DNA of 64,000 nucleotides from Escherichia coli. GTDB taxonomy: Bacteria; Pseudomonadota; Gammaproteobacteria; Enterobacterales; Enterobacteriaceae. The notes beneath the pieces were generated by a model that worked only from the letters and a program-made list of their open reading frames with translations, searched no databases and had not been told where the DNA came from. The DNA lies in the NCBI RefSeq assembly GCF_029227855.1, contig NZ_CP074356.1, one strand, 5' to 3'. Position 1 is the stretch's first letter. Each line of letters starts with the position of its first letter. The translations under genes and the position numbers were made by a program. This document shows positions 46,588 through 58,218 of the stretch, piece by piece.

Positions 46588-47184
46588 ATGGTTGGTGTTA
46601 CTCAAAGGTCAGGGAATTACTCACGTAATGTGCAGGTGGTTGTCGATTCTAACTCTGTTGATATTATAAAGTCTCCATCGATTTTTATGGATCTTGTTGG
46701 TATTTTAGTTGATTCGAATGTTATTGATCCTCGTACAAACAATGACTACGAGCCATATGATATTGAGAATAAAATAGACTTCAATGATGTTATAAAACAT
46801 AGAGAACGTATTGAAGGGTTCTATCTATATTCTTCGATGATAGATAAAGCGTATGAAACATTAAATGAAAGTATGCCTACTGCTAAGGAAACGGCACTGA
46901 AAAGCATCAATTCACGATATCTTGATTGTCAAGGAGATTTATTGCTTAAACATAGAGAAGCGTATAAGAGCTGCAAGGATGCTCAGGAACGGAATAATTT
47001 AAAGATTCAATTGGTAAGAGAGTTTGCAGATTGGATAATAGACAGTGTAATAGAGCACATCATTAAGAAATGCTTAAATTCTCTTATGGCAATGAATTAC
47101 ACAAGCGAAGAAATCGAATGCCATGCTTCTTTTATCGTTTATCATGCATTCGTAGAGTGTAAGATTCTGGAAAAACCAATATGA
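46588..47184 (+). CDS. hypothetical protein (198 aa), second gene of the AT-rich cassette
   Basis: ATG 46588 with GAGG SD; stop overlaps the next start (ATGA); no motif I recognise. Confidence 0.65.
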   Translation: MVGVTQRSGNYSRNVQVVVDSNSVDIIKSPSIFMDLVGILVDSNVIDPRTNNDYEPYDIENKIDFNDVIKHRERIEGFYLYSSMIDKAYETLNESMPTAKETALKSINSRYLDCQGDLLLKHREAYKSCKDAQERNNLKIQLVREFADWIIDSVIEHIIKKCLNSLMAMNYTSEEIECHASFIVYHAFVECKILEKPI

Positions 47185-47417
47185 TTATCTCTGATGTAAC
47201 AAAACCAAGCCAAACCTTGTATTACCTGGGAGCTCGGTTATTAGAATGCATGAGTTCAAATGCTTATTCGTATGTTGATATTATAGACTTGTATAATGAA
47301 TTCAAATCTAAAAATAACAACTCTTCATTCACGCAATATATTTACACTTTAAATTGGCTATATTTATTAGGCCTGGTTGATGCTAACGAAAATGGAGATT
47401 TGATATTATGTTTTTGA
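47181..47417 (+). CDS. hypothetical small protein (78 aa), third gene of the AT-rich cassette
   Basis: ATG 47181 overlapping the upstream stop; 3' end overlaps the ATPase start by 10 nt. Confidence 0.6.
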   Translation: MIISDVTKPSQTLYYLGARLLECMSSNAYSYVDIIDLYNEFKSKNNNSSFTQYIYTLNWLYLLGLVDANENGDLILCF

Positions 47418-49132
47418 AACGGCTAATAGTCAGTTCTTTCAGGCTTGGAGTGATTCGTGATATCGAATTTCACATTGGCGTTAATTTGATTATTGACCGA
47501 AACACCTCCAGCAAAGAGCAAACTGGAAATGGTGTGGGAAAAACTACTGTATTAAGAGCTTTAGATTTTTGTTTTGGAGCAGAACAACTGAATTTTTATA
47601 CCGATCCTGAATTCAAGAAAGAAAATTCGGTTATAAAAAATTATTTGATAGAGAACGAGATTGAGTTTTGTTTAATTCTCACAAAAGATTTGAATAATAA
47701 AACTGCACCAGTAATAAAAATTAAGCGTAAAATTACATCTGAGACTAATAAAACGAAGGTTATAGCCTCAATAAATGAAGAGTCCTATACGAAGGCTAAA
47801 GATTTCAACGAGGCTTTAAAAAGAACATTATATCTTGATTCCGCGATAAAACCGACCATACGAGAGATTATGGGACGTGTTATTCGAAATACGCATGACA
47901 AGATGTCGAACGCATTAAAAACGATAAAAATGGGTTCTAATACACAATATGAAACGTTAAATCTGTTTATGTTTGGGTTCGGTAACTCACAGATTCTGGA
48001 TGAAAAACAGTCAGTGACTAAAGCCTATAAACTGGCGAAATCCGATTATGAAGTAATTACTCGCCATCGCTCAAAGAATGCTTTGGAACAAGCTATTGCA
48101 ATTATAAATAGAGATATTATAGCACAAGAAGAGTTAATTTCTAATTTTCAAGTGGCAGACTCTTATAATGATATGCTTGCTGAGTTAAATGAGTTAAAAA
48201 TTAAAATTAGTGAAGTTTCTATCACACTATCATCTTTGGAGTTTAAGCAAAAATTAAACGATAAGGCTATACTAGATCTGGAAAAAAGTCATGAAAATAT
48301 AAATACACTAGATCTACAGAAGTTGTACTTAGAAGCAACTGATCGGTTAGGTAACTTAAACAAAGAGTTTACTGAGCTACTTTCGTTTCATAATAAAATG
48401 CTTGTAAAAAAAGCTGAGTTTATTAGAAAACAAATGCAGCCAGTGCTGCAAGAAATTTCCAAATATAAAGATGAACTAAATAATTTATTGACTCAAGAAT
48501 CAGAGCTTTTAAAGAGTTTGTCTTCGCATGGGACATTGGCAGACCTGCAAATAATGCAAAAAAAATTAAATTCATTATTTGAAGAAAAAGGTGGGCTTGA
48601 AGCTGGACTACTTCAAATCCAAGAGATGGAGAACAACTTTAATATACTGAAAGCAAAGTTTAATGATGTGTCAGATAGATTAAAATCTAAACTTGACGAT
48701 TTTAACAAACGTCTTGCGCTATTCAATTCCTATTTTTCTTTATATACTAAAAAATTATATCAGGATGAATATATTCTTTCCTATAAAGATTCCTCCGGTT
48801 CTTTCGTTTTTACCATTGAACCTTTAGGAACTTTGCTCACATCAGGTAATCAGGGAGAAGGAAAAAAGAAAGCCCAGGTTGCCTCTTTAGATTTTGCCTA
48901 TTTATCTGTCCAGGAGTCTTTAGAAGCCAGAACACCACGTTTTATAGCTCATGATGGAATTGAGGCAATTCATGTAAATCAAATAAATAAGTTATTCGAG
49001 ATAGCTTCGGGGATTAATGGTCAATATATATTGGCTATTCTTAAAGACAAGTTGGAGAATATTGATCAAGACTTCATCAATAATAGTGTTGTGCTTGAGC
49101 TTGGGGAGGACGATAAGTTTTTTAGGCTTTAA
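47408..49132 (+). CDS. SMC/Rad50/ABC-type coiled-coil ATPase (574 aa), fourth gene of the AT-rich cassette
   Basis: N-terminal P-loop TGNGVGKTTVLRALDFCFG (RecF/SMC-type Walker A); ~300-aa heptad-rich central region; C-terminal TSGNQGEG (signature-like) followed by RFIAHDGIEAIH (Walker-B/D-loop-like); GGAG SD. Confidence 0.8.
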   Translation: MFLKRLIVSSFRLGVIRDIEFHIGVNLIIDRNTSSKEQTGNGVGKTTVLRALDFCFGAEQLNFYTDPEFKKENSVIKNYLIENEIEFCLILTKDLNNKTAPVIKIKRKITSETNKTKVIASINEESYTKAKDFNEALKRTLYLDSAIKPTIREIMGRVIRNTHDKMSNALKTIKMGSNTQYETLNLFMFGFGNSQILDEKQSVTKAYKLAKSDYEVITRHRSKNALEQAIAIINRDIIAQEELISNFQVADSYNDMLAELNELKIKISEVSITLSSLEFKQKLNDKAILDLEKSHENINTLDLQKLYLEATDRLGNLNKEFTELLSFHNKMLVKKAEFIRKQMQPVLQEISKYKDELNNLLTQESELLKSLSSHGTLADLQIMQKKLNSLFEEKGGLEAGLLQIQEMENNFNILKAKFNDVSDRLKSKLDDFNKRLALFNSYFSLYTKKLYQDEYILSYKDSSGSFVFTIEPLGTLLTSGNQGEGKKKAQVASLDFAYLSVQESLEARTPRFIAHDGIEAIHVNQINKLFEIASGINGQYILAILKDKLENIDQDFINNSVVLELGEDDKFFRL

Positions 49133-49577: not shown

Positions 49578-49733
49578 ATGAAGCAGCAAAAGGCGATGTT
49601 AATCGCCCTGATCGTCATCTGTTTAACCGTCATAGTGACGGCACTGGTAACGAGGAAAGACCTCTGCGAGGTACGAATCCGAACCGGCCAGACGGAGGTC
49701 GCTGTCTTCACAGCTTACGAACCTGAGGAGTAA
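49578..49733 (+). CDS. hokD: Hok/Gef-family membrane toxin HokD (51 aa)
   Basis: ATG 49578 preceded by AAGGAGAAG; MKQQKAMLIALIVICLTVIVTALVTRKDLCEVRIRTGQTEVAVFTAYEPEE; ORF track shows an in-frame upstream extension from 49521. Confidence 0.86.
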   Translation: MKQQKAMLIALIVICLTVIVTALVTRKDLCEVRIRTGQTEVAVFTAYEPEE

Positions 49734-52147: not shown

Positions 52148-52672
52148 TTATTGTTTAACCCATAATAATTCATTGACATTGAATCCCAACTTTTGAGCGG
52201 TTCGCACATAGTCTGCTTTTACTTTATCTGGAATAGTTGGGGTCCTTGCCAGAATCCATAGGTATTCTCTGTTCGAACCACTAACAAGAGCATACTTATA
52301 CTCATCATCCAGTTTGATTACATTATAGCCACCATAGAAGGGGCCAAAAAACGAAACCTTCAACGCTGCAGTTTTAGTATCTCCAGTAAAGTATGCTTTA
52401 CCTTCGCTCTCGCTCCATTTATTTTTCGTTGGATCGTATCCACGGTTAAGTACACGAATCCCTCCGTCGTTCCGTTTTCCATAAGTAGCGCTGACCTGTT
52501 CCAGACCACGTTCGAACCGGTTCTCGAGGCGAGCTATTTCATACCATTTTCCGAGGTAGCGGTTGGCGTCAAAATTTGTAATCGGCTGCACACCTTTAGG
52601 TGGTGTCGGGGCCTTACATGCTATAAGAGTGAAAGAGAGTGCAATGCCAGTCAACACAGGCCATAACTTCAT
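52148..52672 (-). CDS. outer-membrane lipocalin Blc homologue (about 174 aa), prophage cargo
   Basis: ORF 52148..52678 (-); ATG at 52670-52672 with AGGA SD; lipobox LIAC; lipocalin motifs NFDANRYLGKWYEIARL, YNVIKLDDEYKYALVSG; AT-rich. Confidence 0.85.
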   Translation of the reverse strand: MKLWPVLTGIALSFTLIACKAPTPPKGVQPITNFDANRYLGKWYEIARLENRFERGLEQVSATYGKRNDGGIRVLNRGYDPTKNKWSESEGKAYFTGDTKTAALKVSFFGPFYGGYNVIKLDDEYKYALVSGSNREYLWILARTPTIPDKVKADYVRTAQKLGFNVNELLWVKQ

Positions 52673-52864
52673 AATCAATCCTGTACTTTTGATAGTTGAG
52701 AGTAAGTATGAAAGATAGATGATTACGACCGATCACTTAAAGAACTTTCATACTATATTAGGAATAGTCCATAACAGAAAAATTGTCAGTGATGACGTCA
52801 GAAAGGCAATTTATTCCGTGCACTACACAGTTTATGTGTTAATGAATTAGTCAAGGGGGAGGAT

Positions 52865-53824
52865 ATGATAAAAAAACCTGTGATTGGAATCAGCGGTTGT
52901 TTGGCCGGTTCTGCTGTTCGTTTTGATGGTGGTCACAAAAGAGCTGACTTTTTAATGGACAAATTAGTGGAATGGGTAACATTCAGACCAGTATGTCCGG
53001 AAATGGCTATAGGGCTGCCAGTTCCGCGTCCTGCTCTACGTCTTGTGCGCTCGAAGCAAGGAAATATACGGATGTGTTTCAGCCACGACCAGAATGAGGA
53101 TGTGACAGAGAGAATGACAGAGTTTAGTCGTTCTTATATGCACAAATTAAAGGATGTATCGGGGTTTGTGGTTTGTGCTAAATCTCCCAGCTGTGGCATG
53201 GAGCGCGTGCGTGTCTATGATGAAAATGGTAATCGAGGTCGTAAAGATGGAGTGGGACTATTTACGAGCACTTTGATGGAAAAGTTTTCCTGGCTACCGG
53301 TTGAAGAGGATGGGCGATTACATGATCCAGTGCTTCGTGAGAATTTTGTTGAAAGAGTTTTTGCTTTGCATGAGCTCAATCACCTTTACAAGGAGAAATT
53401 ATCAAGAAGAGAGTTATTAGCTTTTCATAGTCGTTATAAGCTTCAGTTGTTGGCGCATAGTCAGGCAGGCTATAAAGATATGGGACCATTTGTGGCTGCA
53501 ATACACGAGTGGGCGGACCTTGAATCATACTTTGAGGTGTATCGTGATAAGCTGATGGCGATTCTCAGAAAACCTGCATCACGTAAAAATCACACGAATG
53601 TGCTGATGCATATACAGGGGTATTTTAGTAATTACTTAAGTACACGCCAGCGTAAAGAGTTGACCGAGGTTATACTTAACTATCGCTTTGGCACATTGCC
53701 TCTTCTTGCGCCGTTGACTCTGCTGAAGCATTATCTGGGTGAGTATCCTAATGATTACTTGCTTACACAGAATTACTTCGATCCCTATCCGGAAGAACTG
53801 GCTCTAAGACTGATGGTGAATTAA
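52865..53824 (+). CDS. two-domain DUF523 (TudS-like Fe-S thio-nucleobase desulfidase) plus DUF1722 protein, RudS-like (319 aa)
   Basis: ORF track 319 aa; GGGGGAGG SD; N-terminal GISGCLAGSAVRFDGGHK with further Cys at FRPVCPEM and VVCAKSPSCGM (three-Cys Fe-S pattern); C-terminal half YbgA-like. Confidence 0.75.
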   Translation: MIKKPVIGISGCLAGSAVRFDGGHKRADFLMDKLVEWVTFRPVCPEMAIGLPVPRPALRLVRSKQGNIRMCFSHDQNEDVTERMTEFSRSYMHKLKDVSGFVVCAKSPSCGMERVRVYDENGNRGRKDGVGLFTSTLMEKFSWLPVEEDGRLHDPVLRENFVERVFALHELNHLYKEKLSRRELLAFHSRYKLQLLAHSQAGYKDMGPFVAAIHEWADLESYFEVYRDKLMAILRKPASRKNHTNVLMHIQGYFSNYLSTRQRKELTEVILNYRFGTLPLLAPLTLLKHYLGEYPNDYLLTQNYFDPYPEELALRLMVN

Positions 53825-54230
53825 CTGTATGCGATATCATCTGAAAGTGATGAGTTCCTGTATGCAGGATATTTACAATCGTAAAAACTACACTATGATA
53901 CCCATAGTGTCAGTTTGTATAAAAATCCTGTTCACGCTGAAGAAAACATTGAGATGCAATTTAATGTTGGTAAACATACCAGCCCCAAAAGATTTTATTC
54001 AATCTGTTTTTATATGAAGATATTTCAAGTGAATATTAAGAGTATATAATATTATTATTGCACGCAGCTATTATAATATAACAGATTAGTTTAATGATTT
54101 GTTTTTTGTGAGTTAAACACATGGTTTTATAGTTGTGATGCAATGAGATTTTCCTTATTGTTGAACTGGCGAATATTGATTTTCCACCTATACTTACCTG
54201 GTGTAACCCCAGTGATATCAGGTGGATAAT

Positions 54231-54944
54231 ATGCCATACATATGTTCTGTCATTTTGGTGTTGAACTCGTTTGGTGTCCGAATTGGTAAAGAAGATATTT
54301 TGTTTAAAAAAGGAAGTGCTGTCCTCATCGAATACAATTTAAAAGATCTTTTTTCGTCAAATACAGATCATCTAATGATCGTAGATGTTGAGGAGAAAAC
54401 AGTTAATGATTTCTTTAAAAACTACACACTCTCACCTTTTTCTGTAAGAAGGTTTTATCCGGCATACTTGATAGTAGAATGTGAAGGTTTTTCTTTGTTA
54501 AAGAACTTGGTTGCATGCTTGAATTGTGATAGCAAAACCGTGGATGTGGTTAGAAATCAAATATCACTTGCATGTCTTGCTGTCTTATCTTCAGAGAAAA
54601 TAGTGCAAAGTTTTTTGTTCGGAAGTCTTAATAGCTTAGGTTGTAAAGTTAAGGCTATTATTCACTCGGATATCTCAGCGTCATGGAGACTTTGTGATAT
54701 ATCTTCAAGATTATATATGAGCGAGAGTTTGTTAAAAAGAAAATTAAAAGACGAAGGGGTATCGTTTAGTAGATTAATTCTTGAAGAACGAATGATGATG
54801 GCGCAAAGATTATTAATTTACAGTAACCATACTGTCGGCAAGGTGGCGGGAATATGCGGGTATGACAATGCATCATATTTTGTAAGTGTTTTTAGAAGAT
54901 ATTTTGGTGTGCCTCCGCACCAATATTTATCAAGATTTTCTTAG
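54231..54944 (+). CDS. AraC/XylS-family transcriptional regulator (about 237 aa), prophage cargo
   Basis: ORF 54222..54944 (GTG); ATG at 54231; C-terminal HTH ...HTVGKVAGICGYDNASYFVSVFRRYFGVPPHQY; AT-rich with long AT-rich upstream region. Confidence 0.85.
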   Translation: MPYICSVILVLNSFGVRIGKEDILFKKGSAVLIEYNLKDLFSSNTDHLMIVDVEEKTVNDFFKNYTLSPFSVRRFYPAYLIVECEGFSLLKNLVACLNCDSKTVDVVRNQISLACLAVLSSEKIVQSFLFGSLNSLGCKVKAIIHSDISASWRLCDISSRLYMSESLLKRKLKDEGVSFSRLILEERMMMAQRLLIYSNHTVGKVAGICGYDNASYFVSVFRRYFGVPPHQYLSRFS

Positions 54945-55135
54945 AAGATATGATGTGATGGCATTTTATAAAGTTGTTTTTTTGAAGTGTAAGATTATAC
55001 GATATTTTTAGCTACGCCAGAATAATTGCTGGCGTTTTTCTTTTTGAATAGATGTTCGGGCCTTACGCTAATGTAATTTTTTTCCTTCTTCGAACCAAAC
55101 CGTGTACACCATCCGTTATCTGCGGAGGTGAGGCT

Positions 55136-55351
55136 ATGAAATCCATGGATAAGTTAACAACGGGCATCGCCTACGGCACCTCTGCAGGCAGTGCTGGCTA
55201 CTGGTTTTTACAGTTGCTCGATAAAGTCACGCCCTCACAGTGGGCGGCAATAGGTGTATTGGGTAGTCTGGTATTTGGCATGCTGACGTATCTGACTAAC
55301 CTTTATTTCAAGATTAAAGAAGACAGGCGTAAGGCTGAGAGAGGAGAGTAA
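55136..55351 (+). CDS. essQ: phage holin (71 aa)
   Basis: ORF 55052..55351; ATG 55136 after GGAGGTGAGG; [30 protein letters not shown]...[13 protein letters not shown]. Confidence 0.88.
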
Positions 55352-55355
55352 TCCA

Positions 55356-55700
55356 ATGACTCAAGTATACGAACTGGTTGTGAAAGGAGTCCGTAATTTT
55401 GAGAATAAAGTTGCGGTAACTTTAGCCTTACAGGACAAAGAACGCTTTGACGGTGAGATTTTTGACCTTGATATCACTATGGATCGTGTTGAAGGTGCTG
55501 CACTGGAGTTTTATGAGGCAGCAGCCAGAAGGAGAATCAGACAGGTGTTCTTGGATGTTGCTGCCGGGTTATGTGAAGGGGATGAGCAGTCGCCGGAAAA
55601 GCGCCCCATAATTTTAGAGGCGCAGAATGTGTGGATAACCTACAAAGGAAAGCTACCAGGAAGAATTACTGGTTATCTGAAGACTCCGCCGGAATGTTAA
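55356..55700 (+). CDS. hypothetical protein between holin and endolysin (114 aa)
   Basis: ATG 55356 after GAGGAGAG, 5 nt after the holin stop. Confidence 0.5.
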   Translation: MTQVYELVVKGVRNFENKVAVTLALQDKERFDGEIFDLDITMDRVEGAALEFYEAAARRRIRQVFLDVAAGLCEGDEQSPEKRPIILEAQNVWITYKGKLPGRITGYLKTPPEC

Positions 55701-55938
55701 TTTTAACAGCATATTTCTCTTCCAGTAATGCCACCAGCCACTTGAAGGAATTTTGTTGTTCCTGGGACCATTTGGGGCTGTGTGATTCAAGCTGGAGCGA
55801 TGCCAGTGTTGGTTGCATTTGTTCCCTGGGAATTGACAATGCCAGATATGAAAATGCGACAGTAAGGGCATTAACATCATCCCGAAGCCTGGAAATGCAG
55901 TCGAGCAACTCCTGAAGAGAAATGGTGTTATTGTCCAT
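55666..55938 (-). CDS. hypothetical protein, antisense to the lysis cassette (90 aa)
   Basis: Minus-strand ATG at 55936-55938 preceded by AAGAGGA; 3' end overlaps the convergent 114-aa ORF by 35 nt. Confidence 0.45.
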   Translation of the reverse strand: MDNNTISLQELLDCISRLRDDVNALTVAFSYLALSIPREQMQPTLASLQLESHSPKWSQEQQNSFKWLVALLEEKYAVKINIPAESSDNQ

Positions 55939-56043
55939 AAATAATCCTCTTGATTGTATTTACCTGTTCTCCGCCTGATTCAACAGGTTGGGACAGATAA
56001 ACATATCCTGGGTTCAGAAATCGATAAATCCTGATAAATATCC

Positions 56044-56577
56044 ATGAACGTAAAAGTCAAATACGGCCTGTCGGCTGCCGTTCTGGCGCTGATTGGTGCT
56101 GGTGCATCTGCTCCCCAGATACTTGACCAGTTTCTGGACGAAAAAGAAGGTAACCACACAATGGCATACCGTGATGGTTCCGGCATATGGACCATCTGTC
56201 GGGGTGCCACAGTGGTGGATGGAAAACCCGTTTTTCCCAATATGAAACTGTCGAAGGAAAAATGCGACCAGGTTAACGCTATTGAGCGTGATAAGGCTCT
56301 GGCATGGGTGGAGCGCAATATTAAAGTACCACTGACCGAACCACAAAAAGCGGGTATCGCGTCATTTTGTCCCTATAACATTGGCCCCGGTAAGTGTTTT
56401 CCGTCGACGTTTTATAAACGGCTGAATGCTGGTGATCGTAAAGGTGCATGCGAGGCGATTCGCTGGTGGATTAAGGACAGGGGGCGTGATTGCCGCATTC
56501 GTTCAAATAACTGTTACGGTCAGGTTATTCGTCGTGATCAGGAGAGCGCGTTAGTGTGCTGGGGGATCGACAGATAA
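56044..56577 (+). CDS. rrrQ: SAR-type endolysin (lysozyme), 177 aa
   Basis: ORF track 177 aa; N-terminal signal-anchor-release segment LSAAVLALIGAGASAP; motifs shared with lambdoid lysozymes (WTICRG, LNAGDRKGACEAIRWW, CWG). Confidence 0.82.
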   Translation: MNVKVKYGLSAAVLALIGAGASAPQILDQFLDEKEGNHTMAYRDGSGIWTICRGATVVDGKPVFPNMKLSKEKCDQVNAIERDKALAWVERNIKVPLTEPQKAGIASFCPYNIGPGKCFPSTFYKRLNAGDRKGACEAIRWWIKDRGRDCRIRSNNCYGQVIRRDQESALVCWGIDR

Positions 56578-56875
56578 GCAGAATATTTCTCTGAAAAATG
56601 ACGTTGGCCAACGCGAGTGGATAACACGATATTCGTCATAAATGAATTGAAGTAGTGAATAAGAGCAGAACCCCCGATTGCGCGAACAGTCGGGTTTTTT
56701 GTGTTTCCTGACTCCGGAAAAGCCAAAGGAGAAAGTGTGTTTGATTTTAGCAAACTGATTCGGGAGATTCGAACTATGGTTGAAAAATTATCCACCTGGA
56801 AATTCATTCTTTTCTGGCTGGTGTTTGCGATTATGGCCTCCGGTTATTTCATTGCTCAGATACGCTGGTGGTGAA

Positions 56876-57340
56876 ATGAAACCGGTTCTGTATGCGGTGA
56901 TTGTTATTCTACTGGTGGTCAGTGGTGCGCTGTTGCTGGCAATAGCCCATTACCGCGATAATGCCATCATCTACAAAGAGCAGAGAGATGATGCGAAGAC
57001 AAAACTCAGCCAGGCGAACGCAGCCATTACTGACATGCAGCAGCGCCAGCGTGATGTTACTGCACTCGATGCAAAATACCTGAAGGAATTAGCTGATGCG
57101 AAAGCTGAAAATGATGCTCTTCGTGATGATATTGCCGCTGGTCGTCGTCGGTTGCACATCAGAGCAGTCTGTCAGAGCGTGCGTGAAGCCACCGCCGCCT
57201 CCGGCGTGGGTAATGCAGCCGCCCCCCGACTGGCAGACACCGCTGAACGGGATTATTTCACCCTCAGAGAGCGACTGATAATAATGCAAAAACAACTTGA
57301 AGGGGCACAGCTATACATTCGAGAGCAATGCCTCAGATAA
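56876..57340 (+). CDS. rzpQ: i-spanin Rz (about 154 aa)
   Basis: ORF 56780..57340; ATG 56876 ([26 protein letters not shown]...); N-terminal TM helix plus coiled-coil periplasmic domain. Confidence 0.8.
57096..57278 (+). CDS. o-spanin Rz1 lipoprotein (60 aa), embedded in Rz in the +1 frame
   Basis: ORF track 60 aa [24 protein letters not shown]...; lipobox VVGC; proline-rich ([15 protein letters not shown]). Confidence 0.78.
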
Positions 57341-57657
57341 AAACCGGCCAAGGATAATCCGCTGAAGATTCGCCGGGGCTAGAGAGAGCCAAAGCTTTAA
57401 TTGACACCATTACTCATAGCAAGGCAATGCATCGTTTTTATGAGGTCAATAGATGCCTGATTTATTTCTGTGCTCCGTATCGTCGCTGTATTCCTTCGTT
57501 AACCATGAGTGTAGTCCGACGGGGAGCACGAGTGTATGGGAATAATAAAAAAAGATACACACCTGGGTTTACCGCTTTTATGCTTCGCGGGTTTGCTCTT
57601 CATGCAGCTAGTCCGGTACAGAGGTGTATGAAACCGGACTGCTGATTTAATTAATTC

Positions 57658-58062
57658 CTATATTAATGGTCTGTTATTTTCAACATCTTCCATGTACAAA
57701 AGATCGTGATCAAACGAATAGTAAAACCTTATGTTTTTATCTATATCTGTAATCCAGCGATAAACACCTGCTTTTGCTAAAGTGAGACGATATTGATGAA
57801 ATGTAGATTTACCTGATATAAGATTTCTGGCTGCTTCTTTAATTAATTCTGGTTTCTTTGATGTGCTAACTTTCACAAGTCCTCTACTGCCTCGAACTAA
57901 TAAAATATTATCATCATGAGTAATTAGTCTTATATTATCAGTAGCCAGATAATAAATATAATGCGCAATATTATGGCGTTTTAATTCGGAGTAAAACCAT
58001 GGGAAGTATAAATTACTTCTAACGTGTTCGAATATCTCTTGAAAAATATCTGCCTGCTCCAT
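57658..58062 (-). CDS. hypothetical AT-rich cargo protein (about 134 aa) between lysis and packaging modules
   Basis: ORF 57658..58083 (-, GTG); preferred ATG at 58060-58062 preceded by AAGAGGA; Tyr/aromatic-rich; no recognised motif. Confidence 0.5.
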   Translation of the reverse strand: MEQADIFQEIFEHVRSNLYFPWFYSELKRHNIAHYIYYLATDNIRLITHDDNILLVRGSRGLVKVSTSKKPELIKEAARNLISGKSTFHQYRLTLAKAGVYRWITDIDKNIRFYYSFDHDLLYMEDVENNRPLI

Positions 58063-58218
58063 CAGGAAATATCCTCTTGTCACTGCTACTTCTTACCATG
58101 AGCTTAGATAGTTTGCATGATTTGTTCTCTCACATCAATCTGATCCGACCTCATTGAGGTGGGCGTTGTGAATACCTGATAAGAAATGTGGGTCCTCCCA
58201 ATGGGGGAGGCTGGCACG

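Follow-up and report, generated by a model that had tools for sequence, protein, structure and literature searches.

A close described counterpart of the locus reported here lies in the Qin prophage of Escherichia coli K-12, in which YdfR (b1555, P76160), of the same PF07041 family as the protein discussed below, is encoded at the same site, after the class II holin gene essQ and before rrrQ. In work published in 2026, two-hybrid screens that used RNase G and RNase E as baits picked up K-12 YdfR; the RNase E interaction was mapped to YdfR residues 1–72, with the catalytic N-terminal half of RNase E as the partner, and YdfR was found to co-purify with RNase E 1–598 (PMC13232886). In the same work, DNase-resistant nucleic acid co-purified with K-12 YdfR and RNA was pulled down; overexpression of the protein changed few transcripts, and ydfR was silent in standard growth (PMC13232886). 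A second point of reference is provided by morons, which have been defined for lambdoid and P22-like phages as late-operon inserts whose expression is independent of the operon (PMC2629481).

Here, we describe a related locus in a window of 64,000 nucleotides (the whole stretch of DNA analysed) from E. coli contig NZ_CP074356.1. The account that we favour, and that we regard as probable rather than secure, is that a resident late gene of the YdfR family lies beside an independently mobile, separately transcribed reversed moron, which we call alpha, and that the overlap between the two genes has no function. The arrangement is a common one, and both genes are already annotated as unknowns within an E. 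coli prophage lysis cassette. What makes it worth attention is that about one-fifth of complete E. coli genomes possess the reversed gene and that roughly half of the surveyed prophage loci anchored on YdfR have cargo in the slot behind ydfR; the slot offers a clean natural experiment in module exchange within an operon usually drawn as holin, endolysin and spanin; the new tie between YdfR and RNase E adds interest to the cassette (PMC13232886).

The lysis cassette and its ydfR-family gene

The stretch from 55000 to 56650 is 100% identical to several RefSeq E. coli chromosomes, and in one of these the surrounding 25 kb form a lambdoid prophage in which a Qin-like early region and the Q antiterminator are followed by the lysis cassette; genes for terminase and portal are present in the same prophage, as are those for head and tail. 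The lysis cassette described here belongs to an E. coli prophage of the lambdoid, Qin/phage-21 type. It opens with essD, a class II pinholin gene of the phage 21 S type (55136–55351, plus strand, 71 codons; PF04971 Phage_holin_2_1, E = 2e-35), in whose sequence the dual-start motif MKSMDK can be read, whose TAA stop codon lies at 55349–55351 and which PGAP names 'phage lysis protein EssD' in the identical RefSeq record. The lysozyme gene is of the rrrQ type (56044–56577, plus strand; PF00959, E = 3e-23; PGAP 'rrrQ lysozyme'), and its product begins with an Ala/Gly-rich, weakly hydrophobic segment that is typical of signal-anchor-release (SAR) endolysins, so far as can be judged from the residues and from what is generally known of such enzymes; the lysozyme would be expected to behave accordingly. 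An Rz-type spanin gene follows (56876–57340, plus strand; PF03245, E = 9e-49; PGAP 'lysis protein'), with an Rz1-like lipoprotein ORF embedded in it (57096–57278, from the list of open reading frames). The three Pfam families, the dual start and the Rz1 ORF together identify a pinholin/SAR-endolysin cassette of the phage 21 type, in which the order would be pinholin, ydfR, a small reversed gene, SAR-type lysozyme and Rz/Rz1. The order holin, YdfR, reversed ORF, lysozyme recurs in the annotations of two functional phages, Chlobot and vB_EcoS-783R2. A cassette probe found matches in 5152 of 5426 complete E. coli genomes, and the genome set contains 14,541 copies of the cassette. A search of 53800–58200 against Rfam gave no match.

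Between pinholin and lysozyme, the sequence-only reading had described a convergent, overlapping pair of orphan ORFs, both thought to be insertions. Its geometry is borne out: the plus-strand ORF spans 55356–55700 and the minus-strand ORF 55938–55666, the two overlap by 35 nt, and the latter has a strong Shine-Dalgarno sequence, AAGAGGA. The close adjacency of the plus ORF to the holin gene is likewise confirmed, with four intervening nucleotides between the holin stop codon and the ATG at 55356. The description as orphans, on the other hand, has to be withdrawn. The 114-residue product of the plus ORF matches PF07041 (DUF1327) with E = 5e-42 and 142.4 bits against a cut-off of 25, its residues 1–112 covering positions 1–92 of the 93 in the profile; it also belongs to phrog_406/2091 and is a 'YdfR family protein' in PGAP. 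The 90-residue product of the minus ORF, alpha, matches phrog_2411 end to end (E = 3.4e-53, residues 1–90 on profile positions 1–90 of 90) and is likewise annotated by PGAP, as a 'hypothetical protein'. The homology and structure searches that had been proposed have yielded families for both ORFs, and no match that gives alpha a function.

Both frames are conserved across related prophages, which is what the sequence-only reading had made its case depend on. Among 53 distinct DNA versions of the holin-to-lysozyme interval, drawn from 76 copies (the window and 75 related loci), the ydfR reading frame is intact in all 53, with a pN/pS of 0.37, and that of alpha in 50. As in K-12 Qin, ydfR lies directly 3' of a class II holin gene (essD-ydfR-...-rrrQ here), and several functional phages (Chlobot, vB_EcoS-783R2 and Stx2-86) have it in their cassettes. 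The gene belongs to the normal make-up of this type of cassette.

The Shine-Dalgarno sequence of ydfR, GGAG, sits within the 3' end of the holin gene, and this position, together with the four-nucleotide spacer, suggests that ydfR is translated from the late transcript; the gene would be read from the Q-dependent late transcript straight after the holin. By homology with K-12 YdfR, the protein most likely targets host RNA metabolism late in infection and most likely stands outside the membrane and cell-wall lysis machinery. The link to RNase E has been established only for the 103-residue K-12 variant (PMC13232886); the 114-residue form retains, inside its conserved core, the N-terminal region that corresponds to the RNase E-binding residues 1–72. 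A late role of YdfR in host RNA metabolism may be taken as the best available hypothesis. The AF2 model of the protein is weak (pLDDT 54), with three strands and a helix over residues 1–71 and disorder over 72–114, and a comparison of the model with PDB structures returned no significant structural neighbour (best match, E = 0.05).

A variable slot behind ydfR codon 112

Slot lengths were surveyed in 236 loci, with the YdfR core and the lysozyme as anchors, and were 59, 78, 352, 428–537, 591–696 or 922–1106 nt. A slot of 59 or 78 nt is empty, and one of 352 nt contains alpha. YdfR queries by themselves recovered 151 loci, in which the slot is empty in 73 cases and contains alpha in 19; the remaining ones have C-terminal extensions of YdfR (64–184 aa) and/or other reversed ORFs. 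These belong to three further families that occupy the same place in the same orientation, each with its own Shine-Dalgarno sequence and with an ATG 113–128 nt from that of the lysozyme gene: phrog_2572 (86 aa), which shares 53 nt with a long ydfR and has no annotation in phage PhiR63_1; phrog_1853 (104 aa), which corresponds to gp06 of Stx2-86; and phrog_18136 (87–91 aa). No homology was detected among the four families of reversed ORFs, alpha included. YdfR tails and reversed genes assort independently, as illustrated by a 156-residue tail that is seen both with and without gp06. The slot is a recombination hot spot whose start falls precisely behind codon 112 of ydfR and whose contents vary from phage to phage.

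The conserved YdfR core, codons 1–112 (55356–55691, plus strand), is common to all cassette variants, and all module classes are homologous through CTGAAGACNCCNCCG and diverge afterwards; correspondingly, YdfR proteins of other cassettes match up to residue 112 (…LKTPP) before diverging, and BLAST homology to two such loci (L003 and L004) ends at 55691. DNA homology to the other classes is regained near position 56000, 44 nt upstream of the lysozyme start codon, which delimits between the two breakpoints a variable module of 308 nt (55692–55999) that holds the body of alpha and its 5' region. A stand-alone homologue, whose protein is 54% identical to alpha (L257), shares DNA with the window over 55699–55963 only. 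Alpha and ydfR overlap because the module junction falls within the 3' end of alpha. The alpha stop codon (55666–55668) is the antisense of a conserved AGA-ATT-ACT; this codon and the last eight sense codons of alpha lie beyond the module, antisense to codons 104–112 of the conserved ydfR core.

The convergent overlap at 55666–55700 is, as judged from the junction alignment, the comparison with L257 and an AF2 model, a recombination-junction scar, with the folded part of alpha predicted to lie wholly outside it. The overlapped alpha residues, together with a few codons at the module edge, are exactly the tail with pLDDT below 50. Since the stop codon and last residues of alpha are borrowed from ydfR antisense and are predicted to be disordered, the overlap appears incidental: the antisense of the ydfR core would supply alpha with its last eight codons and its stop, and the overlap would have no function of its own. 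The proposal that both ORFs are insertions between holin and endolysin divides, with ydfR being resident, as in the essQ-ydfR-rrrQ arrangement of K-12 Qin, and alpha a present-or-absent mosaic module. Nor is there support for treating the two as a pair, as had been suggested: each occurs without the other, and their overlap arises from the module junction.

A survey of 5426 complete E. coli genomes found alpha DNA in 1124, about one-fifth, BL21(DE3) and ST131 among them; approximately 79% are without it. The BL21(DE3) copy resides in Rac (ECD_RS07140, WP_000370546.1). Among 50,697 deposited phage genomes, only three contain alpha DNA. Beyond E. coli, homologues with 25–42% identity occur in other Enterobacterales, and their surroundings vary widely. 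Two of them (P0188 and P0191), from hosts with GC contents of 53% and 36%, have the reverse orientation between the tail genes M and L; another (P0185) is reversed just upstream of small ORFs and terminase genes, and its use as a query against viral contigs found nothing. In a subfamily from a phage of a low-GC host (L333), the gene has the reverse orientation immediately ahead of a holin-holin-M15 endolysin-Rz/Rz1 cassette, and in E. coli phage phiSTEC1575-Stx2k the order is S21, ydfR and reversed alpha, followed by a holin-holin-M15 peptidase cassette that replaces the lysozyme. Chromosomal homologues lie between dinI and bssS (P0196) or are solitary genes (P0192 and P0183). This range of contexts, with tail regions, terminase regions, other cassettes and chromosomes, argues that alpha is mobile and independent of ydfR.

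In non-E. coli homologues of alpha, we also observed a conserved 5' hairpin leader with the loop GAUGGCUGAUUAA; the leaders of the distant homologues gave no match in Rfam. A 14-mer, GATGGCTGATTAAC, was set aside, its occurrences being mostly chance matches, with an alpha-family ORF following in only 5 of 120.

In all phage contexts found, a small forward ORF converges on alpha and extends 7–35 nt into the 3' end of the gene. Such regularity might be expected if alpha formed a functional unit with YdfR or with the lysis cassette, whether as an antagonist of YdfR, pinholin or endolysin or as a timing or lysis-inhibition factor, with alpha acting as a regulator of lysis and the convergence being selected. 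The same reading can draw on the fact that alpha homologues adjoin the lysis genes of three cassettes of unrelated type (those of the window, phiSTEC1575-Stx2k and L333), and on weak motif echoes between the forward partner ORFs and the tails or C-terminus of YdfR. These echoes are, however, short and non-significant (z 2.8–3.6), as are those among the partner ORFs themselves, which show no significant homology to one another; a conserved two-gene module of alpha and a forward partner was rejected as unproven on this ground. Further points against a functional unit are that the great majority of E. coli genomes are without alpha while nearly all match the cassette probe (the counts are given above), that about half of the YdfR-anchored loci have an empty slot, that alpha also occurs between tail genes, by terminase genes and alone in chromosomes, and that its reversed orientation precludes co-expression with the late operon. 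We consider a functional unit unlikely. We read the convergent partner ORFs as a sign of compact gene packing rather than of conserved pairing, and note the repeated proximity to lysis genes.

Coding evidence, fold and expression of the reversed gene

Alpha (55666–55938, minus strand, 90 aa) is a real gene, and the decisive evidence, as far as comparison of sequences can carry it, comes from its distant homologues. A HMMER profile search of 1.84 billion representative proteins retrieved homologues of 81–97 aa at 25–42% identity that share the pattern ELLDxIxxLRxxVNxLxxAFSYLAFS...PTIxALxFES (the AFSYLAF/FES motif), and three of the distant ones (P0188, P0192 and P0196) themselves match phrog_2411. 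Within E. coli, the region is free of indels across the DNA variants, and the part of alpha outside the overlap has 17, 13 and 38 polymorphic sites at codon positions 1, 2 and 3. The pN/pS of alpha is 0.32 and that of the plus-strand shadow frame (55631–55915) is 0.27–0.29; dN/dS cannot separate the two frames because their third codon positions coincide, and it was dropped as a frame test in favour of substitution quality and codon usage. Both of the replacement tests point to alpha. The mean BLOSUM62 score of amino-acid replacements is −0.38 in the alpha frame, the more conservative of the two, versus −1.22 in the shadow frame, and the codon-usage log-odds are 0.16 for alpha and −0.01 for the shadow frame, with neighbouring genes at 0.12–0.25. 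The shadow frame has no Shine-Dalgarno sequence, its stop codon is not conserved and some variants contain internal stops. Ahead of alpha, by contrast with the shadow frame, the Shine-Dalgarno sequence AAGAGGA (55945–55951, minus strand) is placed 6 nt before the ATG, and GAGGATT is kept in all variants. The base composition of alpha is not distinct from that of neighbouring genes.

From a shallow alignment, AF2 predicts alpha to be a three-helix bundle (mean pLDDT 78; helices at residues 8–34, 38–52 and 59–77) with a disordered segment at 80–90. The protein is computed to be acidic (pI 4.6) and soluble, and across the family the pI ranges from 4.6 to 6.1 with no membrane segment. Searches of alpha against Pfam, NCBIfam and PADLOC and a profile search against the PDB gave no match, and Foldseek comparison with the PDB and BFVD returned only matches with E > 0.3. 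None of the PADLOC-DB defence models matched alpha, its reversed analogues beta and gamma, or YdfR, and the sole PADLOC-DB match among the alpha homologues was that of P0196, at 13.6 bits. The products of alpha and ydfR are both soluble and acidic, and both frames are under protein-level constraint. A type I toxin-antitoxin system of the txpA/RatA kind, with convergent 3' overlap, was rejected because neither product is hydrophobic: no transmembrane segment was found, with maximum KD19 values of 0.93 and 0.78.

The signals that might drive alpha are sparse. A scan with consensus models detected no sigma-70 promoter and no intrinsic terminator on the minus strand near alpha, and no LexA box occurs in the window. 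Our own scan, combined with conservation, brought out a speculative promoter-like element that the consensus scanner did not report, TTGAAT-N19-TACAAT (55953–55983, minus strand), the sole conserved element of this kind in the 105-nt spacer; its 19-nt spacing is non-optimal, and it would start transcription almost at the Shine-Dalgarno sequence, leaving nearly no leader. A literature search by accession numbers retrieved no papers, and no expression report for alpha was found. Alpha is reversed in every late-operon context found, and this suggests that it is most likely transcribed alone when late transcription is off. Expression in the lysogen, which the sequence-only reading had also proposed, is plausible from the orientation.

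Downstream of alpha on the minus strand, no terminator-like site was found, the 3' end of the gene being inside ydfR, so that transcription of alpha would continue, in antisense, into both ydfR and the holin gene. This feature and the convergent geometry could be taken to mean that the transcript matters more than the protein, with antisense transcription damping leaky late-gene expression, that of the holin, in the lysogen. Such a role for the transcript sits poorly with the protein-level constraint on alpha, which is visible in the quality of its replacements, in its codon usage, and in homologues of the same length that retain 25–42% identity in unrelated contexts; the conservation of a strong Shine-Dalgarno sequence speaks for translation, and the family also occurs where no holin gene lies downstream. 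We judge this explanation improbable. That the minus ORF is a chance or shadow ORF, the constraint falling instead on the plus frame 55631–55915 or on non-coding DNA, is very hard to credit: the plus frame is open in most variants and has an equally low pN/pS, yet it fares worse on substitutions and codon usage and has the defects in initiation and termination described above, whereas alpha has a confident fold and distant homologues in other genera and contexts, and PGAP as well as phage annotators call the minus ORF.

We return to a resident YdfR late gene beside an independently mobile reversed gene. Here, alpha would be an accessory gene, a moron, encoding a small, acidic, cytoplasmic three-helix protein that is most likely transcribed on its own in the lysogen, with late transcription off, and that most likely acts by binding a host or phage protein.

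A more ambitious proposal can be built on the same observations, and we put it forward as a doubtful one. The slot would be a dedicated hot spot at which lambdoid phages swap small reversed genes expressed against the late operon, of at least four unrelated families (phrog_2411, phrog_2572, phrog_1853 and phrog_18136); alpha would represent a family of acidic three-helix proteins found across the Enterobacterales, with a role in modulating lysis or in counteracting some function of host or phage; and outside E. coli its expression would be controlled by the 5' hairpin with the GAUGGCUGAUUAA loop. If the reversed genes do turn out to be expressed in the lysogen and to modulate lysis, immunity or defence, the slot would offer a small region in which to look for such functions. 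To us, the most interesting aspect of the locus is a slot that exchanges at least four unrelated small reversed genes beside lysis genes, followed by the hairpin leader outside E. coli.

Comparison with known systems

The cassette resembles that of phage 21 (S21, R21, Rz/Rz1) in its PF04971 dual-start holin, in the weakly hydrophobic N-terminus of its lysozyme and in its embedded Rz1. The canonical phage 21 cassette has no gene between S and R; in the present cassette, as in numerous E. coli prophages, that position is taken by ydfR, either alone or followed by a variable module. Compared with K-12 Qin, the family and the site of ydfR are the same and the protein differs, K-12 YdfR being 103 aa long and diverging from the 114-residue form after approximately residue 84. 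In K-12, ydfR overlaps rrrQ by 4 nt, and for this reason there is neither a variable slot nor a reversed gene.

Alpha is moron-like in several respects. It is present or absent at one site among collinear phages, it is small and reversed and has its own Shine-Dalgarno sequence, and its family recurs at other late-operon sites and in chromosomes. It departs from the moron pattern in that no terminator was recognised and its composition does not stand out, and the consensus scan found no promoter, the conserved TTGAAT-N19-TACAAT being the one candidate. The bor gene of phage lambda is likewise reversed and adjoins the lysis genes; it encodes an envelope lipoprotein, in contrast to alpha, whose product is predicted to be cytoplasmic and acidic.

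The architecture of the window is found again in Stx2-86, where gp05 is a 268-aa YdfR family protein and gp06 a reversed 104-aa hypothetical protein, and the two loci share the placement of the reversed gene's Shine-Dalgarno sequence, some 105–128 nt from the lysozyme ATG. They differ in that Stx2-86 YdfR has a 156-aa C-terminal extension and does not overlap gp06, and in that gp06 has no detectable similarity to alpha.

Leader and opposite strand of alpha

Outside E. coli, homologues of alpha (the reversed 90-aa gene of the window, 55666-55938, minus strand) share a hairpin immediately 5' of the Shine-Dalgarno (SD) sequence, which we located at five loci, none of them in the window (L246:3921-4003, L253:3921-4003, L251:741-823, L258:376-458 and L333:4766-4848, the last upstream of a holin-holin-M15 endolysin cassette). 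Across these five sequences the stems covary (compensatory pairs 4/10) around an almost unchanging loop, G(G/A)AUGGCUGAUUA(A), and farther 5' of the hairpin lies a GGTTCAGCCC box. A search of Rfam returned no family match for this leader, and in E. coli the DNA 5' of alpha is without the hairpin element.

The frame opposite alpha, a 94-codon plus-strand shadow ORF (55631-55915), has its third codon positions in register with those of alpha, and this alone keeps it free of stops in most variants; we rejected it as non-coding because its translation is rich in Ser and Cys, its codon usage is poor and its substitutions are radical.

Mosaicism of YdfR and other settings of alpha

The YdfR core is mosaic in itself, as an alignment of YdfR family proteins revealed swapped segments, for example DKERFDGEIFDL versus IGGYPSLLLPDV and AAARRSIRQVF versus EAKKQAKQFF, and some database members carry an internally duplicated core or are holin-YdfR fusions.

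In the Stx2k phage phiSTEC1575-Stx2k (OQ243220, 18405-22650), the S21 holin-ydfR-alpha block is followed by a second, different lysis set that replaces the lysozyme and consists of an M15 peptidase gene with a pair of holin-like genes, so that holins of two types stand in tandem in this phage. At L257, where an alpha homologue stands alone, the gene for the Hfq-binding sRNA isrN (L257:2985-3127, 134 bits) was found 170 nt downstream of it, at a site flanked by genes for an AIDA-type autotransporter and an AraC-type regulator.

Accessory genes around the window's lysis cassette

In the window, cargo (about 52150-54944) separates the gene for the Q antiterminator from that for the holin; it comprises a reversed gene for a lipocalin, a gene of the YbgA family (52865-53824) and one for an AraC-type regulator (54222-54944). 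A terminator-like hairpin (55014-55035) comes next, just 5' of the holin gene. The prophage early region contains three genes annotated as an 'ABC-three component system', one product being a DUF2326 protein (about 46588-49132, mapped from the PGAP annotation of the identical RefSeq record, L005:3589-6133), with hokD just downstream (about 49578-49733). Between Rz and the terminase genes, a DUF1398 (YdfO/YbcV-like) gene (57658-58083, minus strand) is a second reversed accessory gene of the late region.

Counterparts in other phages

The 300-nt lysozyme-Rz gap (56578-56875) contains a strong plus-strand terminator-like hairpin (56673-56694) followed by a T-run, which falls inside what is expected to be a single late operon; in Stx phages, the position of this gap is occupied by ant. 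In phage PhiR63_1, an unannotated reversed 86-aa ORF (L003:2248-2508, minus strand) with the SD AGAGGTGA matches phrog_2572 (E=4e-53) and overlaps the 3' end of the gene for a 183-aa YdfR by 53 nt; by position it is the analogue of the window's alpha, although the two sequences are unrelated.
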